Shown: piece by piece, positions 4,195-28,741 of the stretch
Position numbering within the stretch: position 1 is the first letter of the stretch
Layout: each line of letters starts with the position of its first letter
Source: Planctopirus limnophila DSM 3776
Lineage (GTDB): Bacteria; Planctomycetota; Planctomycetia; Planctomycetales; Planctomycetaceae
Direction of reading: 5' to 3'
DNA length: 32,000 nt
NCBI RefSeq assembly: GCF_000092105.1
Contig: NC_014148.1
Span: 3,840,001-3,872,000 of the forward strand
Translations under genes and position numbers: made by a program
Notes under the pieces: generated by a model
The model's database searches: none
Told to the model about the DNA's origin: nothing
The model's input: only the letters and a program-made list of their open reading frames with translations

Positions 4195-4318
4195 GCCAAC
4201 CAACAACTCAAACGGAAACTGACGACCCTGAGAAACCTCGAAACAGTCCATTGAATTTAACATGCCCGAGAGCCACTCACTATCGAACGAGTTTCACGGC
4301 ACATCAAAGGTTCTGATT

Positions 4319-11262: not shown

Positions 11263-14200
11263 ATGTCTCATTTTGCGCGCCGATTGTTCGCCCATGCGAT
11301 CCAGCATCGTACTCGCTGGCTTTCGGCTGGATTATGCCTGACGGCTGCTTCCTCACTGCCTGTGGAATACGAAAACACTGTGCAGGCGCAGGACTGGCTG
11401 GCCGATTCGACCATCAATGTCGGATCGTCACTGTATGAAGGTGGCACTTCAACGCAGCAAGGCCAGGCCTTAGGAACTGCCTTCCGCGTCGGGCACTTCA
11501 CAGGTCCGTGGATTGGACGCGAAGATTCCATCACTCCTGTCGAATTAATGCCCTACGGCTTTATCGAAAACTTCATGCTCTTCGGTGATCTTCGCGGCTT
11601 CCGCTCGAATTCGGATCGCTATGGAGCCAACGTCGGTGGTGGTGCCCGCTACTACCTGGAAAACTACGACCGAATTATCGGTGCGAACGCTTATTTTGAT
11701 TACGACGAAACCAGTGGTGCTCCCTTCCGTGATGTCGGCTTCGGTATTGAAACGTTAGGCCGCTACTGGGATGCACGAGTCAACGCCTACTTCCCCGTAG
11801 GCCCTACAGAGCAGCTCCTCAGCCAAAGCGTCGTCACTGGCAGTCAGCGATTCCAGGATACTCGGATTCTCTTTGACCGCGAGCGAATTGTCGGTCTCGC
11901 CCCCAAAGGTTTCGATGCCGAATTCGGCATGCCGTTATTCTTCAACAGCTTCTTCGAGCGGCACGATCTCCGCGCTTTTGGCGGTTTCTACCATTATCAG
12001 TCAGAAAATCTGCCCACTCTCTGGGGTTGGAAGGGACGACTCGCTGCCGATGTCATCCCCAGCATTAACGTCGGCCTTGAAGTTGCTCATGACCAGGTCT
12101 TCAAGACAAACGTCGCGTTCAATGTCCAATGGACATTTGGTGGCTTCCGCCAGGGCGAAAGCGAACGGATCACTCAGATCAATCGCATGACCACACCTGT
12201 CCGCCGCAGCTACAACGTGGTGGTGGCCCAGAATCGCGTGGTCGATGAAGATGTTGTCGCGATCAACCCGGCCACTGGCAACCCCTACAACGTACAACAC
12301 GTGGCCAGCTTCGCCACAGGCCTTGAAGACGGTACCGTCGAGAATCCCTGGAATACCATCCAGGAAGCTCAAGGAATTGTGGGTGAAGATATCGTCTTCG
12401 TTCATGCCGACAGCGTGTTTGATAATCCCGGCACCATCAATCTCGAATCCGGTGTTCGAGTTCTCGGCGAAGGAAATGGTGTTAACCACCTCGTGAATGT
12501 TCAGGGGCTGGGGAACATCCTTTTGCCACGGGCCACCGCCGGTGTGAATCGCCCACTGATCCAGAACACCGTTGGTAATGGTGTCGTACTGGCTGCGAAT
12601 TCAGAATTCAGCGGCTTTGTCGTCGATAACCCAAGTGCCTTTGGCATCTTTGGGACAGGCGATCTCGGCCTGTCATTCATTCGCAACACCTCGGTTTCCA
12701 GCAGTGGTTCAGCCGGAATTTCTCTCAACAATACTCAAGGTGCATTGAGTATTCAGAACTCGACCATCTCCGATCCTGATGGCAATGCCAACGCTCTGGA
12801 AATCATTGGTGGAAACTCGACCGTTACCTTTACCGGGAACTCCAGCTCAACCGCCTCCGATATCACCAGTACCGGTGGTGCCGCACTGCTCGTTCAAGGC
12901 ATGACGGGTGGATCTGTCAACCTGACTGGCTCGCAGATCTCGAATGATGCGGGCCTGGGGATCCAGATTCAGAACAACGCCAGCATTGTGACCGTCGATA
13001 CTGCCACAATTTCCAATGCCACCGGCAATGCAGTACTCGTCAACAATACCTCCCGGAATGTGACCTTCCGTGGCCCGCTCACTATTTCGAATGCGGGCGA
13101 CGACTCCATTCTTATTCAGAATACAGCGGCAGGCTCAACAGTTTCATTCTCTGATCTGTCAAATACGACCGGCGTCACGATCAGTGGTCGCGGCGGACAG
13201 GGGGTGAACATCAACAATAATGCGGGCAACGTCAACTTCTTCAGCCCGCTGAGCATTGCCGGTCTGGGTGGAGTGGGTGATGCCGCCATCGACTTCCAGA
13301 ATAACTCCGGCAGTGCCTTGTTCCAGAACATTACGATTCAAGACAGTGCGGGCGATGGTATCCGGATTGGTGAAACCGCACTGGGAAGTAATAACACAGG
13401 AACCTTTACTGTCACTGGGATCACCAGTATCACCGGGAACATCGCACAAAACGGTATTGCCATTACCGATGACAGTGCTGTTGTCACTTTCGGGAATGCC
13501 GCCACAACCACCGGGATCAACGGTCGCGGGTTGGCAGGCATCAGCGTCATTGACAACAACGCCAATGTTAACTTTCTGGGAACCACCAGCATTGGTAACC
13601 CTGGCGGAAGCACCAGCCCAGCCATTGATCTGCAGGATAACGACAACGCGAATATTGTTTTTGGTAACGTGATTGTTACTGATGCGACCGGGCCGGCTGG
13701 CCAGGGTGCCGGTGCCAACATCATCGGCAATGCTTCGAATATCTCCTTTAACTCACTCAGCGTCACAACCATCGACGGTATCGGCCTCTTCGTTCGCGAT
13801 TCACAAAGCCTCACGATTGCCGATGGCTTTATCGACTCCACATTCGCTACGACAGGTCGCTCGGCCATCGATATTGAAGACTCGGGCTACGTCATCACGC
13901 TCGATGGAGCTTCGGCCGACACACCCACCGGGGCTGGTATCCGGCTGGTCGACAACACGGGGATCAACGGGACTGGCAATGCTCAGTTCGTGATCACCGG
14001 CACCGATGTCGCCCGCGACGGGGGTACCATCCAGAATGGTAACGCAGATGGTGTCTTCGCGGTGAACTCCGGTGGAGTCAGCCTCACCGGGATGACCATC
14101 AACGACAATCTCGGCCGTGGTGTGTTCGCCAGCAATCTGCGACAGCTCAATGTCTTTGGCAGCACCACAGCAGGTGACATTTTTGCCAACGGCTTCTCAG

Positions 14201-15177
14201 GCGTCGAAACTCTCAATGTGGATGTTGTCCAGATTGCCGACATGACCTTCACCAACAACGGCGCTGTCAATACGGACAATCCGGAAATCCTGCTCCGGGC
14301 GAATGCACTCTCGCAAACGACTCCCACCGGACAGACCAGCACTGGTTACCAATGGCTGATTCAACGCAACGTGATCACCGAGAACGGTGTTGACGCGGTC
14401 CGCCTTCAGTCGGAAAACACCAACGTCGGCACTCTGTTCCTGACAGTGGGTGGCCCGAACAATAGCGATCTGGTGAACTTCCTGCCTGGAGCAGCCACGA
14501 GCGATGGCAATACGATCGTACTCAATTCCATCACCCCGGGTGCAGCTGGTGTCAACGTTCAGTGGAACAATGCTCTCTCGGCTGCTGCTCAGTGGAACCT
14601 GATCACGATCACAGGTGCCAACAACGGTGCCGAGCGGATCGGGATGCGGTTTGCCACCACCAATACCCTTCAGCCACATGTAATCAACGTTCTCGACAAC
14701 ACCATCAATTCGACACGCGAGAACTCGACTGGCTTTGAATTCTCTCAAGCCGGAATTCTCAACGCGATTATTGCCCGTAATAACGTGAACTTTAATACGC
14801 CGGATGTCTTCGTCGACTTCAACCGGGCGATGCGATTCAACATCGGCAACAACTCGGTCGTCGATCTCACAGACAACGTGACCCTCGATGCCGATGATGG
14901 ATCACAAGGCTTCGTGTTTGAAACCGTGGGCAGTGGCAGCACCTTCTTCATTGCCCGCAACGATCTGACCTTTACCAATAACTTCTTCGGATTCTTTGAA
15001 GAAGGGATCGTCTTTGAAACAGTCACCGGAACTGTCAACTTCATCGGCGGTGCCGATATCACAACCAATAACCTGGTCAACTTCACCGGAACCACAGGTA
15101 CAGGCACTGCCTTCCAGTTCCTCTCGGGAACATCGACTGGCTCACTCCGTGTCAACGGAGTTCAAATCTTCCCATAA
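11263..15177 (+). CDS. large surface protein: inverse-autotransporter (intimin/invasin-type) beta-barrel domain plus a long parallel beta-helix passenger
   Basis: Signal-like N-terminus. Residues about 60-300 follow the IAT-barrel pattern (GANVGGGARYY..IGANAYFDYDE....RDVGFGIETLGRYWDARVNAYFPVG ... KGFDAEFGMPL ... FGGFYHYQ ... GWKGRLAADV). The remaining roughly 1000 aa are degenerate G/N/T/S/I-rich beta-helix-type repeats (GNAVLVNN, GLGIQIQNN, GDGIRIGE, GRGVFASN). A GAGGTG Shine-Dalgarno sits 8 nt upstream. Confidence 0.8.
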   Translation: MSHFARRLFAHAIQHRTRWLSAGLCLTAASSLPVEYENTVQAQDWLADSTINVGSSLYEGGTSTQQGQALGTAFRVGHFTGPWIGREDSITPVELMPYGFIENFMLFGDLRGFRSNSDRYGANVGGGARYYLENYDRIIGANAYFDYDETSGAPFRDVGFGIETLGRYWDARVNAYFPVGPTEQLLSQSVVTGSQRFQDTRILFDRERIVGLAPKGFDAEFGMPLFFNSFFERHDLRAFGGFYHYQSENLPTLWGWKGRLAADVIPSINVGLEVAHDQVFKTNVAFNVQWTFGGFRQGESERITQINRMTTPVRRSYNVVVAQNRVVDEDVVAINPATGNPYNVQHVASFATGLEDGTVENPWNTIQEAQGIVGEDIVFVHADSVFDNPGTINLESGVRVLGEGNGVNHLVNVQGLGNILLPRATAGVNRPLIQNTVGNGVVLAANSEFSGFVVDNPSAFGIFGTGDLGLSFIRNTSVSSSGSAGISLNNTQGALSIQNSTISDPDGNANALEIIGGNSTVTFTGNSSSTASDITSTGGAALLVQGMTGGSVNLTGSQISNDAGLGIQIQNNASIVTVDTATISNATGNAVLVNNTSRNVTFRGPLTISNAGDDSILIQNTAAGSTVSFSDLSNTTGVTISGRGGQGVNINNNAGNVNFFSPLSIAGLGGVGDAAIDFQNNSGSALFQNITIQDSAGDGIRIGETALGSNNTGTFTVTGITSITGNIAQNGIAITDDSAVVTFGNAATTTGINGRGLAGISVIDNNANVNFLGTTSIGNPGGSTSPAIDLQDNDNANIVFGNVIVTDATGPAGQGAGANIIGNASNISFNSLSVTTIDGIGLFVRDSQSLTIADGFIDSTFATTGRSAIDIEDSGYVITLDGASADTPTGAGIRLVDNTGINGTGNAQFVITGTDVARDGGTIQNGNADGVFAVNSGGVSLTGMTINDNLGRGVFASNLRQLNVFGSTTAGDIFANGFSGVETLNVDVVQIADMTFTNNGAVNTDNPEILLRANALSQTTPTGQTSTGYQWLIQRNVITENGVDAVRLQSENTNVGTLFLTVGGPNNSDLVNFLPGAATSDGNTIVLNSITPGAAGVNVQWNNALSAAAQWNLITITGANNGAERIGMRFATTNTLQPHVINVLDNTINSTRENSTGFEFSQAGILNAIIARNNVNFNTPDVFVDFNRAMRFNIGNNSVVDLTDNVTLDADDGSQGFVFETVGSGSTFFIARNDLTFTNNFFGFFEEGIVFETVTGTVNFIGGADITTNNLVNFTGTTGTGTAFQFLSGTSTGSLRVNGVQIFP

Positions 15178-15748: not shown

Positions 15749-15864
15749 ACACGCATTCAATGAGCACTCCACCAAAGTTGTGTGCAATAGACAGCGGCCC
15801 GGAGCAAGCATGCAAGTTCGCATCTCTCATATCGCTGTCGATTTCTACGATGCGTCTCACACCC

Positions 15865-15906
15865 AAACAAAAAATGCGACTCCAGGAAGACCTCCCGAAG
15901 TCGCAT
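15865..15906 (-). terminator. rho-independent-type terminator of the Fe-S protein gene
   Basis: On the minus strand, ATGCGACT...AGTCGCAT (15874-15906) forms an 8-bp stem with possible internal extension, followed by TTTTTTGTTT. It lies about 40 nt after the stop at 15945. Confidence 0.7.
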
Positions 15907-15944
15907 GAATTTTTGTCTTGGCAGTGAGAACTGATTCTCAACCA

Positions 15945-16277
15945 CTAAGCGGAGAAGCTGCTGCCACATCCGCAGCTCTTCACAGCATTCGGGTTTTCAA
16001 ACACGAATCCGCGACGATCCAATCCACTGTAGAAGTCGATGGTGGTACCATCCAGATACAACGCACTCTTCTTATCGATAGCAACCTTCACACCATGATA
16101 TTCGATCAGATGGTCGTTGACTGGATCAGCGGCTTCTTCGAAACCAAAGTTATACTTGAAGCCACTGCAGCCGCCGCCGGCGATACCGACTCGAACCAGC
16201 GTGCTCTCACTCATCTGCTGCTCACTGATGATCCGCTGGATTTCCTTAGCGGCACTTTCGGTCAATGTGACTGGCAT
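15945..16277 (-). CDS. iron-sulfur cluster insertion/assembly protein, HesB/IscA/ErpA family
   Basis: [17 protein letters not shown]...[17 protein letters not shown]...[16 protein letters not shown] shows the conserved Cys-X(n)-Cys-Gly-Cys A-type carrier signature. A GAGGAA Shine-Dalgarno lies upstream of the ATG at 16277. Confidence 0.9.
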
Positions 16278-16457
16278 GTTCTCATTCCTCAAATAAGGGC
16301 ATCGCTGTTTCACAAGTGAAAGCGAAATTCAATTGCATTATACAACCCGGCGTCACAAGTCAACAAGGGGCATTGCGTGACCTGATGCAGAATGGAAAGT
16401 GGCTTCACCGAACAATCCACCTTCCACAACATTATACACCATCGAGCAATGCGACAA

Positions 16458-17480
16458 TCAACCAGCCTTTTTCAGATTCTCTGGGCGACCTTCTGTCACA
16501 AATCCTTCGTAGACTTTCTGAATCTCTTCAGCCGACGGAATCCCCGTATGAACCCATAAGCCGTACCGCAGCTTGACGGTTTGAGATGCTCCCCTTGCCG
16601 CCAGTACCACGGGTCTTGCCAGCGTCATATCATTCTGATAAGACCCTTCTCCAAAAGGACTTACGGTGAACAGACCATAGTCCCGAACGTGGTATCTGCC
16701 GGGGCGAAAGTTGGCCGAGTCATCGAGAATTGTCACGCCGTAAGTTTTTTCGTTCACCTTTCCGGAGTAATCAATCCACGGCGCTGGCTTGCCCCAGGCC
16801 TCCTTGGTTTTGGTCTTCCCGTTGGCAGTCAGGATTTTTCCTCCCTGCAGTTCCCGCATTGTCTGAGCAATTCGAACAGCGAAAAATCCTTCTTTGGTAT
16901 CTCCCATAACCACATCATCAACCAATGGTTCCAGCAGGATCTCTGCTGCAATCAGGCGGTTCCTGGTGATCGTCCACCGTGTGGTCTCTCGCAGCTGGGC
17001 CTGCCCTTCTCCATTAAGCCACTCATTTTCGAGTCGAATCACCACCTTTTCGCCAGCCGCCTTCTCGATCGTCGCCCCGCGATTCACGATGGGCTCTCTC
17101 TCCATCCAGTGCTTACTGTGATTCACTTCATCGATGCTGATCCACAATCCTTTATGATGCGGATGCTCTTTTTCGCCCGGTTCAATGGGCCGGGTGAGTA
17201 TGGCCCCATCGGCAGCCAGGAGTGGCCAGAAATAGGGCTTTTTCAAATCCTTTCCCAAATGCAAAGTGGTAAAGGGTTGCCCATCAATGGTAATCGCAAT
17301 CTGATCTCCCTCCTGCTGAGCAACGACTCCACCGTCAGCACCAAAAGTCGTGGTCGAGCCCAGCGTCAGACTGCAGATCACTGCGATGCACCAGAGAAAC
17401 TGACCAGCCGTTGGTAAAGCCCTCTTTCCAGTCATCTGTTGGAACGTCATTGCCTTTTCTCCCGGTTGTTCAAAAATCAT
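16458..17480 (-). CDS. secreted PmoA-family / DUF6807-like protein
   Basis: Signal peptide (FLWCIAVICSLTLGSTTTFGA). Family-typical blocks are KKPYFWPLLAADGAILTRP, HPHHKGLWISIDEVN, GDTKEGFFAVRIA, WGKPAPWIDYSG and YHVRDYGLFTVSPFG. The start is ambiguous among 17480, 17450 and 17435. Confidence 0.75.
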   Translation of the reverse strand: MIFEQPGEKAMTFQQMTGKRALPTAGQFLWCIAVICSLTLGSTTTFGADGGVVAQQEGDQIAITIDGQPFTTLHLGKDLKKPYFWPLLAADGAILTRPIEPGEKEHPHHKGLWISIDEVNHSKHWMEREPIVNRGATIEKAAGEKVVIRLENEWLNGEGQAQLRETTRWTITRNRLIAAEILLEPLVDDVVMGDTKEGFFAVRIAQTMRELQGGKILTANGKTKTKEAWGKPAPWIDYSGKVNEKTYGVTILDDSANFRPGRYHVRDYGLFTVSPFGEGSYQNDMTLARPVVLAARGASQTVKLRYGLWVHTGIPSAEEIQKVYEGFVTEGRPENLKKAG

Positions 17481-17671
17481 GGTCGCCCATCATACAGCGG
17501 GACATGGCAGTCCCCATCGGATGCGACAGGCAACCATACCAACCTCAGCCGTCACTTGCCTCAGGAAATGCCCAGCGCGACTACGAAATAGCTACGGGGA
17601 TTGCCACCATTCCCACACCAGTTCAACATAACCAGTTGATTACAGGGGGTTCACTGCGATCCAGCCACAGA

Positions 17672-18643
17672 TCAATCTTTGGAGGAAGCACGTTCGCGCT
17701 CTCTGCGGATTTCAGCCACTTTCAGATGAGTGATTGCCAGATCAAGCAAGCTGAAACCATCCGTGAGCACTGGCGATGGATAATTTTTGAGATCATAGAG
17801 AATCTGTGCCGCCTCATTCGCTCCCCCCGCTTCGAGATCTGTCATCAGCGAAGCCGCCAAAGTCGATTTGGGGTTATGAACGCGAAACTTCAGATCCTGA
17901 TACACAGCATCTCGGGGCGGATACCCAGCCGCCTCAGCAATCGACCGGCATTCCTCAAGAAGTTGTAACGCATAAACACCACCACCAGCCTGCACGATAT
18001 CCCCCACCGTACCCCGCATCAGGCAGTTAATCCCCGCCAGCGTTGCCAGAAAAAACCACTTCTCCCACATCTCAAGCAAGATCTGGCGACTATGAACAGC
18101 AGTGAACTTCGCCTGAGAAAAAATCGGATCGATCACATCCACCCGCTCGGCCTGCCCGGCAAATCGTTCTCCATAAACAAAATCGTGCACATTGCTCAGA
18201 TGCACAATCTCACCAGCAGCGTTTAACCGAGCCGAAATATGGCATTTACCACCCAGCACATGCCGGGGCCCAAACGCTGCATCTAAAGCCTGCAGATGCC
18301 GCATGCCATTGAGCATGGGAATAATGAGCGTCTCAGCCCCAACAGCTGGTCGAATATCAGCAATCGACTGTTCCAGGTCATAAGCTTTGCAGGTCAAAAT
18401 CACGAGATCAAATCGTGCGGCAGGCTCACCCCGCTCTGCCATAACACGAAGCTCGCTCGCCGTCAGACATGCAGGTGCCGGGAGAAACGCATTCCCGAAG
18501 GAACTGGTGATCGCCAAACCGGCTTGAGCCAGCTTCTGTGCTCGCGCCGGCCGGACCAGAAAGGTCACATCCTGCCCCGCTTCAAGCAGCCGCCCACCAA
18601 AATACCCACCCACAGCCCCCGCACCCAAAACCAGAACTCGCAT
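17672..18643 (-). CDS. panE: 2-dehydropantoate 2-reductase family (ApbA/PanE) oxidoreductase
   Basis: MRVLVLGAGAVGGYFGGRLLEAGQDVTFLVR has the Rossmann GxGxxG motif, and length and organisation are typical of ketopantoate reductases. Whether it is the true PanE or a paralog cannot be decided from sequence alone. Confidence 0.75.
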   Translation of the reverse strand: MRVLVLGAGAVGGYFGGRLLEAGQDVTFLVRPARAQKLAQAGLAITSSFGNAFLPAPACLTASELRVMAERGEPAARFDLVILTCKAYDLEQSIADIRPAVGAETLIIPMLNGMRHLQALDAAFGPRHVLGGKCHISARLNAAGEIVHLSNVHDFVYGERFAGQAERVDVIDPIFSQAKFTAVHSRQILLEMWEKWFFLATLAGINCLMRGTVGDIVQAGGGVYALQLLEECRSIAEAAGYPPRDAVYQDLKFRVHNPKSTLAASLMTDLEAGGANEAAQILYDLKNYPSPVLTDGFSLLDLAITHLKVAEIRRERERASSKD

Positions 18644-18765
18644 GGATTAACTAGCCTCAACCAGAATCTTTTCTTCATCCGCTCTATCTGACGATGATCG
18701 ATTCCCAGCGATCATTCAACACGAGGCAGAACTTTCGTCTAACATAACCGAACGATGAAACTGAT

Positions 18766-21120
18766 TTATTCTTTGGGAAAAGGCAGATTCTCGAACTTGA
18801 ACGATACCACCTGCTCCTCAGGTTGATCGATCACCTCCACAAGTAAGACCTCATCACCATGAATTGGAAGAGATTTCAATCCAGCGAAAACATGCCACCA
18901 ACGTCCATTCTCGAATCGATTCGACGTGGTTATTTCATGCGGAGTACGAACTTTTCCCTCTAGCTCAAAATAACGAACTTTCATCTCTTTGACATACTGC
19001 ATAGAGTCTGCTGAAAATAAATAATCCGGGTAGTCTTCATAGTCATTCATATCAGGTTTAATCTCCTTCCTTAATCCTAGCTTTTTTATCAATGGGGAAG
19101 CATCATTCGATGATTTACTATCAAACAGGCCTGGGATTTCATGCACCATTCGTTTGCCACCAATCAGGCAGGTGATTTCTCCTTCCATAGAAACGATCCG
19201 TGACGCCTGAAAGCGTTGATTCGTAAATAGAAGAGCCAGATTGTTTTCGTCGGGCTCCACCTGGCCACTATGTCGCAGAATTTTGCAAATGTTCAGCGAC
19301 TCTCCATTCACTTTATCGGTTGAATCGATCACTACCTGACCTTGATCAACCTTGATGCTATGAATTTTGATCTTCCCCATCCCGCTGAGCCGGTTGAACC
19401 TCTCTCCTTTGGCGCGAAAGACAACTCCATGGGGGACGTACTGCTTCCCTGTATCTCCGTCATCAATTCGATAGATACATCTCATGGCTGAAGCGTTCAA
19501 TGTGATACCAGGCTCCAATCCCTGAGCTTCGACAGCTGGCTGAAATGGCGCACCTTGTGTGAAGAAATTCGATTCTCTGGTTTCACGCAGTTTCATTCCC
19601 GGAGCGAAATTCTTCGGCCCGCCCATAGCCATGAGCAGCATGAAACTCGAAGGGAGCTGCATCAACCTTTCTTCATCCGTTGCCGGAATGCTGGTCATAA
19701 GTCTGAGCGAACCCGGATTCTGTTCAGTTTTCAGATTCTCAATGAGATGCTTACTGATCGTGTCCAGATCTTCGGTAAAGTTCGAAATATTGGGCCGGAG
19801 AAATGTCTGAATGTATTTGATCTGATTATCAATCAAGGTTTTTAGTTTTGGGAGTTCATCAGTGCTCTTCGACAGAAGTTGAAAACCTATTGAAAGATCT
19901 TCCCCAACCTTGACCGAAAATTGCGCAGCACTCAGATCATAAGGCCACTTCCCTTGAGTCATCGGGCTTGTGCTCTCGACCTGACCAGGGATCGAAGAGG
20001 CTTTTGATGGATCAATCACCGCTACGAGGAGGTGGGCATCCCGATCGAGTGTCGCCCACATGGGATGGGGTTTGATCGACTCACCCTCGGCAATGGCCCG
20101 CTGAATAGTCTCGACAGAACCAGCTAACAGAACATCTGGCTGACTCAAATAGAATGCGCGTGCGTCTGATCGATCGCCATTGGGATCATAGTAGAGATAG
20201 TCGCGATCAGCATGTTTTCTAATCTCTCCCTTCCCATCGATGGACCGGAGATCGTCATAGCTGACAGGTCTATTGAGATGAAGGACACCCAGAGTGCTCT
20301 TCGTCCACTCCTGAGTTGACGATCCAATCGCTTGAGCAATCCTTGGAAGAAGCACTTCCATCGAATCCTCCGGCAGTGGTGCGGCCTTTTCTATAGCGGC
20401 CGAAATCATTTTCAATCCAATAGTGATACTCTTTATATCCTTCTGAGTGAGTGAGCTCTTTCCGAAAGGTAGATCCGGGCTGACTCCAAACTTGCTGCCC
20501 AGAGAAACAACCATCGGTGACTTGTTAATCTCCGCCGAATTCACATGAATCAGCAGATCGATATCGCGATCAAACCACCCCATTCCAGGAAGAAATTTTT
20601 CAACGGTCGCTTTCTCATTGTCAGCCGTTTGTGCCACTGTTTCCTTACTGGGGAGCATCTGCGCACTGATCGAAGTCTCTGTCGATGCGTCTCCTTGTGG
20701 CGAAGCAGGTTCCGGCGCTGCAACCACCGGCGTGACTTCTCTGCTCGATGAGCCTCGGAAGTACATGGCGGTCACTATCGTGCCCGCAACGAGAACGAGT
20801 AGGCACGCACCTGCAATCAGAGCAACCACTGGCGGCTTTTGGGATACGGGCTGGCGACGAGTCTTCGCTGTCGAGCCATTCCCATGAACTTTTGAGGTTG
20901 ATTTTTTATGCGGTAACTTCGCTGGTGGAGCGATCGGTTCATCAAAGTCCGAACCAAAGCCCCCCTCTTCCTCCGGAAACAACTTGGCTACGAATATCGA
21001 ACCACACTTGGCACATTTGACTTTCTTGCCAAGTTTTTCCGATGAAGCCAATTTGAAAGTTGAATCGCAGTCAGGGCACGAAATCCGCAGTGACGCCATG
21101 CTGTGCTCCGCTAAAGCCAC
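18766..21120 (-). CDS. uncharacterised membrane protein: N-terminal MJ0042-type zinc ribbon, one TM helix, P/A/S/T linker, roughly 600-aa extracytoplasmic domain
   Basis: ISCPDCDSTFKL...VKCAKCGSIFVA forms CxxC...CxxC. The TM helix VVALIAGACLLVLVAGTIVTAMYF lies at about nt 20758-20832. No family recognised for the remainder. The likely true start is ATG 21099 (MASLRISCPDC). Confidence 0.75.
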   Translation of the reverse strand: MALAEHSMASLRISCPDCDSTFKLASSEKLGKKVKCAKCGSIFVAKLFPEEEGGFGSDFDEPIAPPAKLPHKKSTSKVHGNGSTAKTRRQPVSQKPPVVALIAGACLLVLVAGTIVTAMYFRGSSSREVTPVVAAPEPASPQGDASTETSISAQMLPSKETVAQTADNEKATVEKFLPGMGWFDRDIDLLIHVNSAEINKSPMVVSLGSKFGVSPDLPFGKSSLTQKDIKSITIGLKMISAAIEKAAPLPEDSMEVLLPRIAQAIGSSTQEWTKSTLGVLHLNRPVSYDDLRSIDGKGEIRKHADRDYLYYDPNGDRSDARAFYLSQPDVLLAGSVETIQRAIAEGESIKPHPMWATLDRDAHLLVAVIDPSKASSIPGQVESTSPMTQGKWPYDLSAAQFSVKVGEDLSIGFQLLSKSTDELPKLKTLIDNQIKYIQTFLRPNISNFTEDLDTISKHLIENLKTEQNPGSLRLMTSIPATDEERLMQLPSSFMLLMAMGGPKNFAPGMKLRETRESNFFTQGAPFQPAVEAQGLEPGITLNASAMRCIYRIDDGDTGKQYVPHGVVFRAKGERFNRLSGMGKIKIHSIKVDQGQVVIDSTDKVNGESLNICKILRHSGQVEPDENNLALLFTNQRFQASRIVSMEGEITCLIGGKRMVHEIPGLFDSKSSNDASPLIKKLGLRKEIKPDMNDYEDYPDYLFSADSMQYVKEMKVRYFELEGKVRTPHEITTSNRFENGRWWHVFAGLKSLPIHGDEVLLVEVIDQPEEQVVSFKFENLPFPKE

Positions 21121-21228
21121 TCGCCTGTTATGTAGGTCTTGAGCTTATACGTAGCACAGTAAAATGAACAGTACTGCCGGATCCGAATTTTTGAGAATAT
21201 CACCCGAGGACGCAGAGAAAGAAGCCTC

Positions 21229-22731
21229 CTAACCCGGCCCCATGCCCAGGTCGTAGGCCTTCAGATTCTGGCGATAGACAGCGAGTGCCGCATGCAGCGT
21301 CGAGCGGTCGATCTTCCACTGAGGATTGCCATCCGTGAATCGATTACAGTGCTCGACCAGCAGTTGATGCAAAAACTTGAACAGGTGCCGGGGCACGCGC
21401 ATTTGCGACAATGTGCTGACAAGTTCTGCTTCCGTCACGCTGCTGTCGAACCAGTCGAGAAGCTTGGGCGGATTGGTACTGCCATTTGTACAGGCCTTAA
21501 TCCGATCGTTAGCCAGGTCGTACAGCGATTCCCCCGTCCACTCCAATGACCGGATCATATTCTGCTTGTCGAGCCGCGAACGCTCGTAGAACTCGGGGTT
21601 TTCCCGGCTGAGAAAATGACTGATCTCGACAGGCAAAAGCAGCTTAAAGCCCAGTCCCGAATGCTTGAGAAACTTGTTATCGAACATCGGCCACATGAGA
21701 TCACGCATGCGCTCGGCATTGCCGTTGATCAGATGCGGCTCATCGACACGATCCACAATCACCACCATCCCGGTGAAGCCCAACGTTCTCAGCACGCTTT
21801 GTAATTTCGAGAGGAATTCATAGCGGTCATCACTGCGGTCCTTGGCAGGGACAGGCTGTGCCACGAGGTCTTTCGATTCAAAACCCGCCAGCACCTGCTT
21901 GAGTGCAATCAAAGGATGATTCAGCACGCGCACCTGTCGGCAAACGCGCCAGGCCAGCCACAACAATTTTGTCTGCTTGATCAGCCACGGCCCCCACGCC
22001 ACCAGCAGCACCAGCCAAGGCCAGGGCCTGCCCAACTGATTCAGCGAGCCGTTCTGTGCCAGCACCCCAAAGAGGACCAGCGTGGCCAGTGCTCCCAGTC
22101 CCAGTTCCCACCAGCTCACAAAGTTGGCAAACCTCAATTTGCGACGCAAAGCATTCCAGCGTGTGGCGGGATGTGTACTGCGCGCTTTATCGAAAAAGGC
22201 GGCCAGGAGCAGCAGATCCCGCTTCTGTGAACGCGAAAGGCTCGCCAGTCGATCCGCATGAATCTCAAAAGCGCCAGGCTTGGACGTATGGCTCTCTTCC
22301 AGCACATCATCCACGAGCCGAGTCGTCGCTAACGACAGAATGGCGTCCATGTGATCCCATAGCTTCCACTGACTCAAAGCCCGCTCAGGGCGGGAAGAAT
22401 GGGGCGCCACATGCTGGCGGAAGTTATCAAGAAATGGATTGAAGTCGTCGTACTCGACCACAAACACCCGATCATTCGGATGCCCAACGTTATGCTCGGA
22501 AATCTGATCCACCACCTGCAGGCGCAGTGCCGTTTTCCCACTTCCCTTTTCACCAAACACGACGGCTGTCGATGGTTCGCCCGGGTTGCCGCAGATTTTA
22601 TCCCAGGCAGGATGGAACGTGGCCTGCGCACAAAATCGCTTGAACAGCGGATCGCTTTGTGCGTCTTCCTGACTGAATGGATTCTGAGAAAGCCCATGAT
22701 GTTCGAGAAACTGCTGAATCCGCATGAACAA
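21229..22731 (-). CDS. P-loop NTPase with a TM hairpin inserted between Walker A and Walker B (KAP-like topology; ExeA/GspA-like N-terminal motif)
   Basis: Walker A is FGEKGSGKT (nt 22531-22557). Two hydrophobic helices, FANFVSWWELGLGALATLVLFGVLA and WPWLVLLVAWGPWLI, lie at about nt 21952-22131. The Walker B-like motif is MVVIVDRVDE (nt 21740-21769). The N-terminal HHGLSQNPFSQ recalls the FGL..PF start of ExeA-type ATPases. Confidence 0.75.
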   Translation of the reverse strand: MFMRIQQFLEHHGLSQNPFSQEDAQSDPLFKRFCAQATFHPAWDKICGNPGEPSTAVVFGEKGSGKTALRLQVVDQISEHNVGHPNDRVFVVEYDDFNPFLDNFRQHVAPHSSRPERALSQWKLWDHMDAILSLATTRLVDDVLEESHTSKPGAFEIHADRLASLSRSQKRDLLLLAAFFDKARSTHPATRWNALRRKLRFANFVSWWELGLGALATLVLFGVLAQNGSLNQLGRPWPWLVLLVAWGPWLIKQTKLLWLAWRVCRQVRVLNHPLIALKQVLAGFESKDLVAQPVPAKDRSDDRYEFLSKLQSVLRTLGFTGMVVIVDRVDEPHLINGNAERMRDLMWPMFDNKFLKHSGLGFKLLLPVEISHFLSRENPEFYERSRLDKQNMIRSLEWTGESLYDLANDRIKACTNGSTNPPKLLDWFDSSVTEAELVSTLSQMRVPRHLFKFLHQLLVEHCNRFTDGNPQWKIDRSTLHAALAVYRQNLKAYDLGMGPG

Positions 22732-22795
22732 CCTTTACGGCTGGTGAATGTAAGCTCTGCAAGGCCCTCATCAACTCAATAACTGGCACTTTCCA

Positions 22796-22829
22796 CAGAG
22801 CGAAACATGATACAGAGCGAAACATGATT
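22796..22829. repeat. tandem 17-bp direct repeat in the divergent intergenic region
   Basis: CAGAGCGAAACATGATA / CAGAGCGAAACATGATT, back to back (16 of 17 identical), immediately followed by CCTTGACTTCA, which contains TTGACT. Confidence 0.7.
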
Positions 22830-23131
22830 CCTTGACTTCAAATCGCTGGCTTCCATCACCCCAGATCACAAGACCCTGCATCCATCCCTCGATCGAGGTC
22901 ACGTCCTGCCACCTGTGGAACATAGACTGACGACAATCGACGACAGAGCTCACCGGGTCATACCATCGCTGAAGGAAAGACGTTTGCCAGCACAATGCGC
23001 GCCACTACAGAATACCTGTTCTGCGCAAAACATCGCCAGTGACTTGATCCGGGGATCGACCCTTGTGGAAAATTTCACACAGAATAAATCCCACCGCGAA
23101 CCATGATCGTCTGTGAACCATCGAGAACCTC

Positions 23132-23980
23132 GTGACGCTCTCCACAGCAGCCAACACTTCTTGCAGCCCGCTTCTGTGGCCCGACTGGTCGCCAGAGATC
23201 CTGTCCAACTCGCCCAGCCACATCCTGGTGGTGCGCGTCCCGCTCGAAATCTCTCCTGGCCGCCAGACTCAGTTGCGGGAACTTCTTTCCACCTCAGAAC
23301 TGGCACGGGCCGATCGGTATCGATTTCCGGAAGTCGGTCGCCGGTTCATTGCCTGCAGAGCCGCTCTCAAAACATTGCTGGCCATGCACATGCAAGGTTG
23401 CCATCAGCCCAAAGATATTCGGTCGATCGAACTGATCCCCACAGCCAGCGGCAAACCCACCTGGGCCGGCAGCCAGAGCGATTTCAGTGTCAGCCATTCG
23501 GGCGAAATGGCCTTGATTGCCCTCCAGCTCCCCTGCTCAACCTCCACAACAGATCACTCCCCCGCACCGTTGCGACTGGGAATTGACCTCGAACATGCGG
23601 CCCGCACGACTGATTGCCTGCGCCTGGCCCGCCGGTTCTTCGCACCCGGCGAAGTCGCTGCTCTGGAAGCTCTTCCCGCAGAAGAGGTCCAGCGGGCGTT
23701 CTTCCGCTGCTGGACACGTAAAGAAGCCTATGTGAAGGCGATTGGCGTGGGCCTGGCCTACTCGCTGGAAGCGTTTGAAGTCCCGATTGATCCCCTGCCA
23801 CCGGGAACCAGCCACCGGGCACTCCTCTCGCATGCCGCCGATGTTCAACAGGTGCAGCGCTGGCAACTCTTCGAAACTTCCCCCCACCCCCAGTACGAAG
23901 CCGCCCTCTTCCTCGACTCGCCCCACCCTCCAAACATCACCTACGCCACCATCAATTGGGCGCAGACATCGATCTTATGA
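23132..23980 (+). CDS. 4'-phosphopantetheinyl transferase, Sfp type
   Basis: ELARADRYRFPEVGRRFIACRAALK, SGKPTW...FSVSHSGEMALIAL, LGIDLEH and CWTRKEAYVKAIGVGL match the Sfp/EntD-type PPTase motifs, including the W/F-x-x-KEA-x-x-K motif. Confidence 0.85.
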   Translation: MTLSTAANTSCSPLLWPDWSPEILSNSPSHILVVRVPLEISPGRQTQLRELLSTSELARADRYRFPEVGRRFIACRAALKTLLAMHMQGCHQPKDIRSIELIPTASGKPTWAGSQSDFSVSHSGEMALIALQLPCSTSTTDHSPAPLRLGIDLEHAARTTDCLRLARRFFAPGEVAALEALPAEEVQRAFFRCWTRKEAYVKAIGVGLAYSLEAFEVPIDPLPPGTSHRALLSHAADVQQVQRWQLFETSPHPQYEAALFLDSPHPPNITYATINWAQTSIL

Positions 23981-24055
23981 GTCAAGACACCCGCCGGTCT
24001 ACTCGCCGCATCGATCCATCATCACTCGAAAATTCGCCTCGAATCGACACACCAT

Positions 24056-24084
24056 TTGACGTCGCCGGGCACAAAACTTAGTGT
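24056..24084 (+). promoter_or_regulatory. candidate sigma70-type promoter for the RM gene
   Basis: TTGACG (24056-24061), a 17-nt spacer, then TAGTGT (24079-24084), about 90 nt upstream of the ATG at 24172. Consensus rules are borrowed from E. coli, so their applicability here is uncertain. Confidence 0.25.
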
Positions 24085-24171
24085 TTTCATGTTCCCCGCT
24101 TGTCGAATAACTGAATCCGATCACCACAGCTCGATTGTGATCACTGCACACCGTTTGAAACCTGGCCTGCC

Positions 24172-27100
24172 ATGACAGCTGCTTCTGTTGCTTCGATTGA
24201 TCCCGCCGCCTTCATCGCCCGCTGGGCACCTTCTGGTGGTTCCGAGCGGTCGAACTACACGCTCTTTCTCTCCGAACTGTGCGACCTGCTGGGCGTCCCG
24301 AGGCCCGAACCGGCCCAGGCCGATACCTCCCGCAGCTTCTATGTCTTCGAGCGGGATGTCACCTTCCACAACAGCGACGGCACCACCAGCACCGGCCGCA
24401 TCGATCTCTACAAACGCGGCTGCTTCATCCTCGAAGCCAAGCAAGGGGTCGAGCAGGCCGATGCCGTCGAAATCCTCTCCTCCACTCCCGCAAAGCGCCG
24501 AAAGGGTCACGGCACACGCGGCACCAAGGCCTACGACGACACCATGCTCCGCGCCCGCAGCCAGGCCGAGCAATACGCCAAAGCCCTCCCCGCCGATGAA
24601 GGCTGGCCGCCGTTCCTCATTGTCGTTGATGTCGGCCATTCGATCGAACTCTTCGCCGACTTCACCCGCAGCGGCAAGACCTACCTCCCCTTCCCCGATC
24701 CCAAGTCCTACCGCATCCTGCTCAATCAACTGGCGCATGACGACATTCGCCACACGCTGAAAACCGTCTGGACCGATCCCGTCTCGCTCGACCCCTCCCG
24801 CCGGGCTGCCAAAGTCACACGCGAACTCGCCGATCGTCTCGCCCGGCTCGCCAAATCGCTCGAAGCCTCGAAGTTTGACCCCGGGCGCGTGGCGCAGTTT
24901 CTCATGCGGTGCCTCTTCACCATGTTCGCTGAAGATGTCGATCTCATCCCGCGCGAGAGCTTCACCAACCTCCTCAAAAGCCTGCGCGATGATGTCGCCA
25001 ACTTCCCCGAGATGATCCGCTCACTGTGGGTGTCGATGGACAAGGGGCAGTTCGATCCCGTGCTGCGGAAGAAGCTCCGCCGGTTCAATGGGGGTCTCTT
25101 CGAGGACTGCGAAGCCCTTCCCCTCACCCGCGACCAGCTCGAACTCCTCATCGAAGCCAGCCAGGCCCAGTGGCGGGATGTCGAACCGGCGATCTTCGGC
25201 ACACTCCTCGAACGGGCACTCGATCCGCGCGAGCGGCACAAGCTCGGTGCGCACTACACGCCCCGCGCCTATGTCGAACGGCTCGTCATGCCCACGATCA
25301 TGGAGCCGCTCCGCGAGGAATGGGACACCGTCCGGGCCGCCGCCTTCACCGAGGCGGGTCGCGGCCACCGGGAAGCGGCCATTCAGATTCTCCGCGATTT
25401 CCACCGGCAATTGTGCGAAACCCGCGTCCTCGACCCGGCCTGCGGCAGTGGCAACTTCCTCTATGTCGCCTTGGAACATATGAAGCGGCTGGAGGGGGAA
25501 GTCCTCAACACGCTGCACGATCTGGGCTATAAACAGCGGGAAATCATCACGGTTGATCCCCACCAGTTCAAAGGGATCGAAGTCAACCCCCGGGCCGCGG
25601 CCATCGCCGACCTGGTCCTCTGGATCGGCTATCTCCAGTGGCACACTCGCACGCGGAACCTGGACGACATCTCCGAGCCGATCATCCAGAATTTTCATAA
25701 CATCGAATGCCGCGACGCGGTCCTGGCCTGGGATGCGATTGAGGAAGTCCGCGATGAACACGGCCAACCCGTCACCCGCTGGGATGGCCGCACGATGAAG
25801 AAACATCCGGTCACCGGTGAAGACGTCCCCGACGACACCGCCCGCGTACCGGTGGTGAAATACATCAACCCTAGAAAAGCCGAATGGCCAAAGGCGGAGT
25901 ACATTGTTGGGAATCCACCATTTATCGGAAATTCGAGGATGCGTCACGCGTTGGGAGATGGATACGCTGAGTGCATCCGCCAGACGTACAATCGCCTACC
26001 TGAGACTTGTGACTTCGTCATGTATTGGTGGGATCGCGCAGCAGAATTTACTTCTGACAATCAGGTGAATCGTTTTGGATTCATTACGACAAATAGTATT
26101 CGCCAAAAGTTCAGCAGGCGAATACTGGAGCAATACATCAACGGTCCTGTCGCTGCACTCTCTCTCATTTTCGCGATCCCCGACCACCCTTGGGTGGACT
26201 CCTCCGATGGCGCAGCGGTCAGAATTGCGATGACAGTGGCCGCTCCTGGAACTAAAGTAGGTCGTCTAAACAATGTTGCTTCTGAGTCGATCGGCGTTGA
26301 TGACGTCGCAGAAGTAAATCTTCGAGAGCGGATTGGTCGTATCCAAACTGACTTGACAATCGGCGCTAATGTCGCTGGTACACTCACTCTCAAAGCAACA
26401 CAGGGACTAAGTTGCCCCGGAGTTAAATTGCATGGTGCCGGATTCATCGTTTCTCCTGAAGAGGCGAGGCATCTTGGTTTAGGTAGCGTGCCGGGTCTAG
26501 AGCTTCATATTCGACAATATCGTAATGGGCGTGACCTTACTGCTAGTCCAAGAGAGGTCATGGTAATTGACTTGTTCGGCTTGGGCGTTGACGAATTGCG
26601 GCAGCGGTTTCCAGCTGTTTATCAGCACGTCCACGACCATGTGAAACCTGAACGCGATCAGAACAATCGTGCAGTTTACCGCGATAGTTGGTGGATGTTT
26701 GGAGAGCCGCGAGCTGCATTCAGGCCTTCACTGAAGGGCCTTGCACGATATATTGCCACGGTAGAAACTGCCAAGCATCGGGTATTTCAGTTTCTTGATG
26801 CTTCGATATTGCCCGACAACATGCTCGTAGTGATTGCTCTAAACGAATCGTTGCATTTAGGTGTACTAAGTTCCCGTATTCATATTGTTTGGTCTTTGGC
26901 CGCTGGTGGAACATTAGAAGATCGACCCCGATACAACAAATCGCGTTGTTTCGAGCCATTTCCATTTCCCGAAATGCCCAATCCACGCACGCCACGCATC
27001 CGCGAACTTGGCGAGCAACTCGACGCTCATCGCAAGCGACAACAAGCCGCTCATCCTGACTTGACGCTCACCGGCATGTACAACGTCCTCGAAAAGCTCC

Positions 27101-27693
27101 GCTCCGGCGAACTGTTGACGGCCAAGGAGAAGGTGATTCATGAGCAGGGGCTGGTGTCGGTTCTCAAGCAGATTCATGACGACCTCGACGCCGCCGTCTT
27201 CGAAGCCTATGGCTGGCCGGTGACACTCACCGACGAAGAGATCCTCGAACGGCTCGTCGCCCTCAATGCCGAGCGGGCCGAAGAGGAAAAACGCGGGCTC
27301 ATCCGCTGGCTCCGCCCCGAGTTCCAAAACCCCTCCGGCGGCCAGGCGATCCAGCCCGAACTCGAACTCGAACTCGAAACCGAAGCCGAGGACGAAGAAG
27401 AAACCGCCGCAGCCACCACGAAGAAAGGCGGCAAAGCCAAAAAGGGAGCTGGCAAAACAGCCCCAGGCGGCAAGACCAAAGCCCCCGCAAAGCAGCCCTG
27501 GCCCACCAAACTTTCTGAGCAGGTGCAGGCCCTCATTCAGAAACTGCAAACCGCCGACAGCCCGCTGACTGCCCAGGAACTCGCCAAAGCCTTCACCCGC
27601 GCGAACGCCGACACGATCGACGAACTCCTGGAAACCCTCGTCGCCATCGGCAAAGCCAGGCAAGTTGGCGACGACAAGTTCACAGCCGTGTAG
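24172..27693 (+). CDS. MmeI-like single-polypeptide Type IIL/IIG restriction-modification enzyme (PD-ExK nuclease, helical spacer, N6-adenine methyltransferase, TRD, C-terminal extension)
   Basis: The N-terminal [18 protein letters not shown] supplies D...ExK (D codon 24403-24405, E 24432-24434, K 24438-24440). SAM motif I is [13 protein letters not shown] (about 25426-25464). Catalytic motif IV is NPPF (25912-25923). Size and domain order match the MmeI family. Confidence 0.85.
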
Positions 27694-27756
27694 AACAGAA
27701 AGTCTCGCGCGAAGGCGCGAAGGATTCCAAGAAGAGCATGCGCTCTGGGTGGGTGG

Positions 27757-27789
27757 CTGGGGTCAAACGTCCTCGTTTGCCCCCAGTTC
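27757..27789. repeat. 33-bp REP-like hairpin element, copy 2 (inverted relative to copy 1)
   Basis: CTGGGGTCAAACGTCCTCGTTTGCCCCCAGTTC is the exact reverse complement of 15716-15748. Confidence 0.8.
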
Positions 27790-27844
27790 ATGAAACTCGC
27801 CTTATCAAAGGCGCTCACACTCTGGTGCTCTGATGCTCTGGTGC

Positions 27845-27876: not shown

Positions 27877-28091
27877 CGATCTTCAATGTGCGATTCCTAT
27901 TGCGGGCGGGTCGGCACCTGAAGTTGGTGCATTCCGAAGACTCCATGCACCCTACGAAATTCCTTCGCGCTCTTCGCGACTTCGCGAGAGCCACAGCCTC
28001 ATGTCGGATCAAGAAAAATTGACTTATTGAGGACGAATAATGATATGCTATGAGTATCAAACTGTTTCATCTCTACAAGGAGATTTCATCC

Positions 28092-28328
28092 ATGCAGCAG
28101 GCGTTTGAAGCGATTTACGAGAATGGCACGTTCCGGCCACTCCCTGGTGGAAATCTCACCATTTCTGAAGGGAGCCGGGTGCGGCTTACTGTGGAGAATG
28201 AACCCGAACCCAAGGCCCTGGAACTGGCTTTAAACGTCTTCGCAGACTTCACAGAATCAGAAATCAAGGAAATCGAAGAGATCGCTTTGAAACGCGATCA
28301 CTTTTTCGGCTCAAGGAACCCATCCTGA
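28092..28328 (+). CDS. DUF104/AF2212-type antitoxin (VapB functional analogue)
   Basis: MQQAFEAIYENGTFRPLPGGNLTISEGSRVRLTVE matches the 'AIYENGVFKPL...EG..V' signature of this antitoxin family. An AAGGAG Shine-Dalgarno (28077-28082) precedes the ATG at 28092. The stop TGA overlaps the ATG of the PIN gene by 1 nt. Confidence 0.8.
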   Translation: MQQAFEAIYENGTFRPLPGGNLTISEGSRVRLTVENEPEPKALELALNVFADFTESEIKEIEEIALKRDHFFGSRNPS

Positions 28329-28741
28329 TGCATCCACGAACACTACTCGACACGGACGTGCTTTCGGGCTTGATGAAGAGAAATCAGACAGCATTAAACC
28401 GGGCGAGAAAGTATCTCAGCATTCATCAGTCATTCACGATTTCCCTGATGACGCGATTTGAGTTAATGCGTGGTTTGCAGGTCAAACAGGCATCAGCACA
28501 ACTCGCCGCATTTGCAGTGTTCTGTAATAACAATGTGGTACTTCCGCTCAATGACAACGTGATTGTGAGAGCTGCCGAAATCTATGCTGATCTTTACCGT
28601 CGCGGAGCACTGATCCCAGACGCCGATATTCTCATTGCAGCGACTGCGATCGAAAATGATCTCGTGCTCGCAACGAACAACGTCGATGATTTCGCCCGCA
28701 TCGCCGATCTCCAAATCGACAACTGGTTAACATCCTCTTGA
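28328..28741 (+). CDS. vapC: PIN-domain ribonuclease toxin VapC
   Basis: LLDTDVLSGL (first acidic residue), TRFELMRG, DADILIAATAIENDLVLATNNVDDF (conserved PIN acidic residues). Translationally coupled to the upstream antitoxin. Confidence 0.88.
   Translation: MHPRTLLDTDVLSGLMKRNQTALNRARKYLSIHQSFTISLMTRFELMRGLQVKQASAQLAAFAVFCNNNVVLPLNDNVIVRAAEIYADLYRRGALIPDADILIAATAIENDLVLATNNVDDFARIADLQIDNWLTSS

Follow-up and report, generated by a model that had tools for sequence, protein, structure and literature searches.

A planctomycete ATPase related to anti-phage DS-41, with a predicted membrane hairpin, and its zinc-ribbon neighbour in Planctopirus limnophila

Plim_2982 and Plim_2981 are neighbouring genes of Planctopirus limnophila DSM 3776, encoding respectively a P-loop nucleoside triphosphatase (NTPase) and a zinc-ribbon membrane protein, and lie within a 32,000-nucleotide stretch of CP001744 (3,840,001–3,872,000), hereafter the window. 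An original prediction, made from the letters of the window, joined the two genes in a cassette comprising a membrane-spanning sensor and a KAP-like NTPase, and placed it in a defence-island-like context. Our analyses point instead to two independent genes. Plim_2982 is probably a lineage-wide housekeeping ATPase switch of the membrane, functionally distinct from its anti-phage relative DS-41, and Plim_2981 an unrelated adaptor in the style of ZitP and GltJ. The distribution and constraint of Plim_2982, its placement in the DS-41/Sll1717 superfamily, and the separation of the two gene families outside Planctopirus carry this account.

Results

Gene models

Both open reading frames (ORFs) are on the minus strand and match deposited proteins exactly; they are real genes, and third codon positions account for most of their differences from Planctopirus hydrillae (69 of 78 in Plim_2982 and 91 of 149 in Plim_2981). 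Plim_2982 (ADG68804.1 / WP_013111235.1 / D5SS80) occupies 21229..22725 including the stop, starts at ATG 22725, and encodes a predicted membrane-anchored P-loop ATPase of 498 aa belonging to a planctomycete-wide clade. Plim_2981 (ADG68803.1 / D5SS79, deposited as 'MJ0042 family finger-like protein') occupies 18766..21099 including the stop, starts at ATG 21099, and encodes a bitopic membrane protein of 777 aa. The co-directional arrangement stands as first described, but the intergenic spacer (21100..21228) measures 129 bp and not 108 bp, since the deposited starts differ from the TTG at 22731 and the GTG at 21120 that were originally adopted. A promoter and terminator scan of the spacer found no terminator-like or sigma-70-like site above shuffled expectation, so that co-transcription in Planctopirus is neither shown nor excluded.

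Distribution and constraint of Plim_2982

Homologs of Plim_2982 are abundant in planctomycetes: 3,934 matches were scored, thousands of them full-length, and none of the best 120 is less than 54% identical. With a single genome scanned for each species, an ortholog was found in more than 304 species genomes of Planctomycetaceae and Pirellulales, a lower bound, at 52–66% full-length identity outside Planctopirus. Among the species genomes listed, identity drops in step with taxonomy, from 99–100% within Planctopirus to 64–66% in the nearest metagenome-assembled genomes (MAGs) of Planctomycetaceae, 58–63% in Schlesneria, 54–56% in Gimesia and 52–54% in Pirellulales-type genomes. An alignment of 74 homologs has constant length and a mean column identity of 55%.

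Selection on the gene is correspondingly severe. Compared with P. hydrillae, the ratio of nonsynonymous to synonymous substitution rates (dN/dS) is 0.018 for Plim_2982 (5 nonsynonymous and 73 synonymous differences), the most constrained gene in the region, against 0.11 for PanE, 0.13 for DUF6807, 0.15 for the 4'-phosphopantetheinyl transferase (PPTase) and 0.20 for Plim_2981, the least constrained. The GC content at third codon positions (GC3) of Plim_2982, 0.66, is typical of the region, while that of Plim_2981 is 0.49. No relative of Plim_2982 was found on viral contigs by a contig scan or in phage records by tblastn, and tblastn against plasmids returned only the distant DS-41 on Escherichia coli IncF plasmids. 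Because dN/dS is so low and the orthologs so widely spread, Plim_2982 behaves like a core gene and not like a defence gene; its conservation most likely points to a housekeeping, envelope- or membrane-associated role and not to anti-phage defence.

Relationship to DS-41 and Sll1717

Profile searches suggest where this gene belongs. Against NCBIfam NF053860 (DS41_1_antiphage, an equivalog model) Plim_2982 scored 113.8 bits (E=9.5e-33), below the cutoff of 370, and against NF047389 (Sll1717 P-loop ATPase, a subfamily model with a cutoff of 75) it scored 69.8 bits (E=2.3e-19) in two stretches, the match being split by the hairpin insertion described below. Bona fide E. coli DS-41 scores 414.7 bits and 96.4 bits on the same two models. 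Aligned with hhalign, Plim_2982 and DS-41 gave a probability of 97.4% (E=1.2e-11) over 388 columns, pairing residues 6–487 of the former with 3–405 of the latter, and BLASTP recovered the relationship (E=4e-11, ~25% identity) in two blocks, one covering the NPF motif and Walker A and the other running from Walker B to the C-terminus. A literature search for Sll1717 found no papers. These comparisons place Plim_2982 in the DS-41/Sll1717 superfamily, as a vertically inherited branch that bears a clade-specific hairpin and whose homology spans the whole protein.

DS-41 ('AAA2', WP_033812887.1, 502 aa) is a single-gene E. coli system that protects against BASEL (Bas) phages; it originates from the DefensePredictor study (Science 2026), whose authors scored it as a remote homolog of the STAND NTPase Avs1B (PMC13092281). 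Like Plim_2982, it has about 500 aa, in which an NPF motif near the N-terminus and Walker A are followed by a long all-helical insert, a Walker B matching hhhD(K/R)xDE and, at the C-terminus, a helical domain; both are organised as single genes without a fixed partner. The two proteins are nonetheless only ~22–25% identical. DS-41 has no hydrophobic segment at the hairpin position, the hairpin of Plim_2982 falling in an alignment gap, and the C-terminal ~100 residues of DS-41 (~406–502) are missing from Plim_2982, which stops 11 residues past the aligned block. Whereas DS-41 is sporadic, plasmid-borne and toxin-flanked, Plim_2982 is inherited vertically across a class under extreme purifying selection. 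In the one retrieved DS-41 locus (L081, gene at 3308–4816, from the E. coli conjugative IncF plasmid CP058102.1), a gene for a RES-family NAD+ phosphorylase stands on one side and a RelE/ParE-CopG toxin-antitoxin pair on the other, a defence or toxin-antitoxin setting that contrasts with the Plim_2982 locus.

Genomic context and the possibility of a fixed defence gene

An MmeI-like enzyme (24172–27693) and a VapC pair (28050–28741) had been noted near the focal genes, and both are confirmed, but the defence-island-like context drawn from them did not hold up. From 15794 to 23961 the window is colinear with P. hydrillae at 92% nucleotide identity, a block that takes in DUF6807, PanE, both focal genes and the PPTase. 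P. hydrillae lacks the adjoining block 23962–27840, which contains the MmeI-type IIG enzyme, but both species have the AF2212-like/PIN (VapBC) pair. The MmeI block thus looks like a strain-variable insertion or deletion beside a toxin-antitoxin pair, with the PPTase flank conserved. Detection of a defence system with PADLOC had also been proposed; run on eight proteins, it reported MmeI only and nothing for Plim_2982 or Plim_2981. The focal locus is not a defence island: the focal genes sit in a colinear backbone block, the MmeI block alone is variable, and neither protein has a PADLOC match.

The main rival explanation is that Plim_2982 is itself a single-gene abortive-infection or anti-phage ATPase of the DS-41 kind, fixed across Planctomycetia, whose ATPase and C-terminal domains would sense infection and whose hydrophobic hairpin would be a membrane-perturbing effector. 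Full-length remote homology to a phage-protective protein speaks for it, but the score falls below the equivalog cutoff (113.8 against 370 bits), the C-terminal ~100 residues of DS-41 are missing, and PADLOC gives no match. The rival can also call on the RES and RelE/ParE toxin genes around the retrieved DS-41 copy, on the scored kinship of DS-41 with Avs1B (PMC13092281), on a weak structural likeness of Plim_2982 to RdrA of RADAR, and on the MmeI enzyme and VapBC pair at most 6 kb away; the MmeI block, however, is strain-specific and unrelated to the backbone, and across 80 loci the neighbours of the NTPase are variable and largely housekeeping. The explanation is unlikely: the gene occurs in more than 304 species, its divergence follows taxonomy and its length is constant, it is the most constrained in its region, and it has no relatives on viral contigs or in phage records. 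Of the kinship with conflict systems that was originally suggested, the remote homology to DS-41 survives, while the core-gene behaviour speaks against the rest.

Conserved motifs and the predicted membrane hairpin

The two Walker motifs of the original prediction are both invariant across the 74 homologs. Walker A (GEKGSGKT, residues 58–65, 22531..22554, minus strand as for all features of the gene) has G58, E59, K60, G61, G63, K64 and T65 invariant, K64 being the catalytic lysine that was first numbered K66; Walker B (VVIVDRVDE, residues 321–329, 21739..21765) has V324, D325, R326, D328, E329 and the following P330 invariant, and aligns with VLIDKLDE of DS-41. An N-terminal motif, HHGLxQNPFSQEDAQxD (SLKSNPFEHYTAENEP; residues 9–25, 22651..22701), is near-invariant and aligns with the N-terminus of DS-41.

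AlphaFold2, given the 74-homolog alignment, returned a model with a pLDDT (predicted local distance difference test score) of 87.1 and a pTM (predicted template-modelling score) of 0.83. In this model, strand 2 of the P-loop core is separated from the Walker B strand by a long, entirely helical insert that includes helices 202–224 and 234–264. The P-loop core is intact, ASCE-type and of the ORC/Cdc6–STAND-like kind. The Foldseek search of the Protein Data Bank (PDB) that had been recommended did return ATPase-core neighbours, namely the AAA+/STAND-like ATPases ORC/Cdc6 (ORC subunits), TnsC and RdrA (RADAR), with a probability of 0.9–0.98 for the ATPase core, but the matches are weak (E>=0.04, TM-score 0.26–0.37), and these proteins have no membrane hairpin and no sequence-level similarity to Plim_2982. 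Foldseek against the viral structure library BFVD gave nothing significant, nor did PDB sequence searches in which each protein and each family profile served as query.

A hydrophobic helical hairpin between the Walker motifs had been claimed, and it is upheld as a prediction by AlphaFold2, the Kyte-Doolittle and Wimley-White scales and charge (residues ~204–262, 21940..22116). This is the sole strongly hydrophobic region of the protein. Arm 1 (residues 208–226) has a family-mean Kyte-Doolittle value of 1.58, and the Wimley-White octanol energy is favourable for arm 1 in 67 of the 74 members and for arm 2 in all 74; arm 2 is rich in Trp and Pro, with a median of −13.4 kcal/mol, whereas the best window in the remainder of the protein reaches −0.9. 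Positive charge on both flanks (+4 and +3) fits an N-in/C-in hairpin, and the loop between the arms is ~10 residues long, leaving no periplasmic domain. Walker A and Walker B must share one side of the membrane, which is compatible with no topology other than a hairpin or re-entrant anchor. The hairpin is thus predicted to anchor Plim_2982 in the inner membrane with both ends cytoplasmic.

Such a topology resembles that of the KAP family (PF07693; for example PifA and Kidins220/ARMS), in which transmembrane (TM) helices likewise lie between Walker A and Walker B and the catalytic domain is likewise predicted to be cytoplasmic, and the ortholog from P. ephydatiae, 99% identical, is entered in UniRef as 'KAP family P-loop domain protein'. 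That Plim_2982 is a bona fide KAP NTPase is nevertheless improbable. No match to PF07693 appeared at E<=0.01 or even at E<=10, although HMMER filters may mask very weak matches, and Pfam otherwise yielded only sub-threshold AAA_22 (23.5 bits against a cutoff of 27), AAA_16 and NACHT. The best profile matches are DS-41 and Sll1717, and the nearest demonstrable relatives, represented by DS-41, are soluble. Since DS-41 has the same helical insert without a TM segment, the hairpin looks secondary, and Plim_2982 would converge on KAP topology without being, by the tests applied, a KAP member; the original label holds for the topology and fails for the family.

Plim_2981 and its relatives

Plim_2981 had been read as a zinc ribbon joined through a single TM helix to an ectodomain that could not be placed, and each part of this description is supported. 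An MJ0042-type four-Cys zinc ribbon, predicted to be cytoplasmic, occupies residues 4–38 (20986..21090, minus strand), matching Zn_ribbon_5 (PF13719) with 65.4 bits against a cutoff of 29 and TIGR02098 (MJ0042_CXXC) with 22.9 against 20.9. The predicted TM helix spans residues ~91–112 (20764..20829, minus strand), the best Wimley-White window being 91–109 and the AlphaFold2 helix 94–112. Beyond it lies an ectodomain of ~610 aa (18769..20607, minus strand), which the family alignment divides into two parts at the conserved hydrophobic segment LPSSFMLLMAMGG (~residues 480–495), and for which there is no match in Pfam, PHROGs or the PDB. AlphaFold2 on a four-sequence alignment gave a pLDDT of 29 and is unusable apart from the TM helix.

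Close homologs number three, all from Planctopirus. An alignment-seeded, word-indexed search with the zinc-ribbon family returned three Planctopirus proteins only, the candidates probably being swamped by zinc-ribbon words, but an exhaustive HMMER search with the ectodomain recovered 39 distant relatives at 21–31% identity. These have a zinc ribbon, a charged linker, a TM helix, a Pro/Ala linker and an ectodomain carrying 'LRWMPADTE..IHVK', a hydrophobic 'LPxxLMMMAMTGG' and then a C-terminal domain that finishes 'FRFENVPLP'. Since all 39 share one architecture, Plim_2981 is a divergent member of a small family of Planctomycetaceae, or planctomycetes at large, and not an orphan. RefSeq WP_230849321.1 covers only the C-terminal 398 residues (from M380; window 18766–19962); this start looks wrong, and the 777-aa GenBank model is favoured because the same architecture is conserved in the 39 relatives.

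One relative of 1038 aa (P0142) has an inserted segment between the two ectodomain parts ('...NLKQILLALHNYHDAH...GGAHFGLADGSVRFISENID') that, judged by eye, resembles a planctomycete DUF1559/prepilin-like domain. Within Plim_2981, the C-terminal half (18766–19935) has a GC content of 0.449 and a GC3 of 0.47, compared with a GC content of 0.537 for the window; a foreign origin, relaxed selection or low expression may account for the difference.

In ZitP of Caulobacter and GltJ of Myxococcus, the N-terminal zinc ribbon of a membrane protein serves as a docking and switch module for cytoplasmic partners (PMC11135422). Both resemble Plim_2981, in which an N-terminal four-Cys zinc ribbon precedes a flexible, charged linker, a single TM helix and a periplasmic region. 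In the PDB, the Plim_2981 family profile has its top match in the zinc ribbon of GltJ (7zok), although not a significant one (E=0.15), and beyond the generic zinc ribbon there is no significant sequence similarity to either protein. The periplasmic domain of ZitP is DUF3426; neither this nor the GYF domain of GltJ has a Pfam match in Plim_2981 or in 18 relatives, and the Plim_2981 ectodomain is much larger than those of ZitP and GltJ.

Synteny of the two genes

The two genes were compared across 80 NTPase loci, of which ~78 lie outside Planctopirus and 67 include downstream sequence. Outside Planctopirus the downstream gene is unrelated to Plim_2981; in Gimesia, for instance, it encodes TAT-signal TIM-barrel-like proteins, and in Schlesneria aminotransferase-like ones. 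A Plim_2981 relative adjoins the NTPase in none of the ~78 loci. Searched with tblastn, Plim_2981 matches 2 of the 80 loci, both from Planctopirus, and PanE, DUF6807, PPTase and MmeI likewise match only Planctopirus loci. All-against-all clustering of the neighbours found no family in more than 15 of the 80, the recurrent ones including MetRS-, IMPDH- and Hsp70-like genes. With a hidden Markov model (HMM) of the Plim_2981 family, full-length members are confined to two loci (L001 and L002), with one partial member in a third (L032), 6.5 kb from the NTPase and on the opposite strand. Seven loci of the zinc-ribbon family were searched in turn, and no NTPase was found in them by tblastn or HMM, including that of P0124, which at 31% identity is the closest outgroup homolog of Plim_2981. 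On the complete chromosome of Schlesneria sp. T3-172 (CP172346.1) both families are present and lie 3.3 Mb apart, the NTPase at ~0.66 Mb (L023) and the zinc-ribbon member P0132 at ~4.0 Mb (L087). The adjacency, shared by P. limnophila, P. hydrillae and one MAG resembling Planctopirus, is thus specific to the genus, and the functional sensor-plus-NTPase cassette of the original prediction is not borne out.

In three of the seven zinc-ribbon-family loci (L084 5354–8758, L085 5345–8729 and L087 7173–10403), from three independent genomes including Schlesneria sp. T3-172, trpC (IGPS, PF00218) stands directly upstream on the same strand, an arrangement that Planctopirus has lost. In 12–14 loci of the Schlesneria clade (L010, L012, L015–L017, L020–L022 and others), genes for an Hsp70-like protein and a ~190-aa protein stand upstream of the NTPase on the opposite strand, a synteny particular to that clade.

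In four Pirellulales-type loci (L071 5267–8482, L074, L077 and L080) the NTPase ortholog is the third gene of an operon-like, co-directional trio, which may be a genuine operon of that clade. The product of the first gene combines a zinc ribbon with a GYF_2 domain (36.9 bits, cutoff 25.8) and ends in a TM anchor, a ZnR-GYF layout that recalls the cytoplasmic switch module of GltJ, and the second gene encodes a protein of ~200 aa with a signal peptide and no family match. The zinc-ribbon protein of the trio belongs to a family other than that of Plim_2981. Recurrent adjacency to a zinc ribbon was considered as a general rule and rejected: in a base-rate test, an HMM restricted to the zinc ribbon detected 3 independent events in the 482 kb lying no more than 3.5 kb from the NTPase and the same number in 373 kb beyond that distance. 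Adjacency to a zinc ribbon is therefore compatible with chance, the densities near and far showing no excess.

These data bear on a second conception of the pair, which narrows the original prediction to one or a few lineages and in which NTPase and zinc-ribbon membrane protein form a sensor-plus-ATPase unit, either in Planctopirus only or with interchangeable zinc-ribbon partners. The co-directional genes with their 129-bp spacer and no detectable terminator would suit it, as would the conserved adjacency, but the Planctopirus genomes, at 92% nucleotide identity, have diverged too little for shared gene order to carry weight. Interchangeable partners might be seen in the ZnR-GYF-TM gene and signal-peptide protein gene directly upstream of the NTPase in the four Pirellulales-type genomes, and in a zinc-ribbon ORF 1.8 kb downstream of the NTPase in L052; against this, zinc-ribbon ORFs are not enriched near the NTPase when independent events are counted, the closest outgroup of Plim_2981 has no adjoining NTPase, and the families are widely separated in Schlesneria. 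Constraint (dN/dS 0.018 against 0.20) and codon composition (GC3 0.66 against 0.49) also set the two genes clearly apart, and we regard a functional pair as very unlikely. Least credible of all is a secretion accessory system of the GspA/ExeA-GspB type, for which the sub-threshold AAA_22 match and an N-terminal 'GL..NPF' reminiscent of ExeA-type ATPases, the resemblance claimed originally, are outweighed by an NTPase with a ~10-residue loop between the hairpin arms in place of the periplasmic peptidoglycan-binding domain expected of that type, by the lack of any NCBIfam or Pfam secretion family match for either protein and of type II secretion genes within the window, and by the want of synteny between the two genes elsewhere.

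Other features of the window

An ORF of 118 codons at 22950–23306 (minus strand), between the NTPase and PPTase genes, was considered as a candidate upstream operon partner of Plim_2982 and rejected as non-coding. It overlaps the 5' end of the PPTase gene, and its substitutions relative to P. hydrillae fall 13 times at codon position 2 and 8 times at position 3; although it may be annotated as Plim_2983, it is probably not a gene, and Plim_2982 is therefore without an upstream partner in the window. The PPTase ORF itself runs from 23132 to 23980 (plus strand), with PF01648 at residues 149–237, and corresponds to Plim_2984, listed in an essentiality study of P. limnophila as a 4'-phosphopantetheinyl transferase at 3863132..3863980 (plus strand) with PF01648 at residues 149–235 (PMC10632474).

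Genes of ordinary metabolism make up the remainder of the window; their products are a U32 peptidase, a pseudouridine synthase/rhodanese protein, a metallophosphatase and an alcohol dehydrogenase. At 11263–15177 (plus strand) there is also a 1304-aa protein with an inverse-autotransporter beta-domain (PF11924) and right-handed beta-helix repeats (PF13229); this autotransporter-like protein is absent from the P. hydrillae locus, where colinearity starts only at 15794.

Discussion

On the evidence assembled here, the explanation we prefer is that Plim_2982 and Plim_2981 are independent genes that in Planctopirus merely lie side by side. Under this explanation, the hairpin would hold Plim_2982 at the inner membrane, on its cytoplasmic side, and both termini would lie within the cell. 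Binding and hydrolysis of ATP by way of K64 and D325/E329 would drive a conformational or oligomeric switch at the membrane, while a partner would be engaged by the near-invariant NPF motif at the N-terminus and by the helical domain at the C-terminus. The cytoplasmic zinc ribbon of Plim_2981 probably docks a protein partner, by analogy with ZitP and GltJ, and the protein would link that partner to its two-part periplasmic ectodomain.

Several points weigh against this explanation. The sole experimentally characterised relative of Plim_2982, DS-41, is anti-phage (PMC13092281), and the hydrophobic insert could in principle be a membrane-damaging effector. The hairpin is a prediction from hydrophobicity scales and AlphaFold2, and no specific housekeeping process is indicated by experiment or by a conserved partner. 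Finally, the ZnR-GYF-TM/NTPase trio of Pirellulales leaves a recurring link between the NTPase and zinc-ribbon membrane proteins conceivable.

A more speculative history, to which we would give little weight, could connect the immune-type relatives of Plim_2982 with its core-gene behaviour. A DS-41/Avs-like ATPase might have been domesticated early in Planctomycetia, becoming a core, membrane-tethered nucleotide switch by gain of the hairpin and loss of the DS-41 C-terminal module, and might now serve a lineage-specific envelope or cell-biological process in these bacteria, whose division does not use FtsZ. The ATPase might also act with zinc-ribbon membrane adaptors in certain clades, as in the Pirellulales trio.

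The immediate consequence is that a false positive, the two-gene defence or sensor system, is removed, and that in Planctopirus adjacency together with a nearby restriction enzyme is weak evidence of a system. What takes its place is a planctomycete-wide, extremely constrained and predicted hairpin-anchored branch of the family that holds the newly validated DS-41, and hence a clean case in which to consider how immune-type STAND/AAA+ proteins relate to housekeeping ATPases. P. limnophila has many conserved 'hypothetical' proteins and has already been surveyed with transposons across its genome (PMC10632474); among those proteins, Plim_2982 is a tractable candidate.

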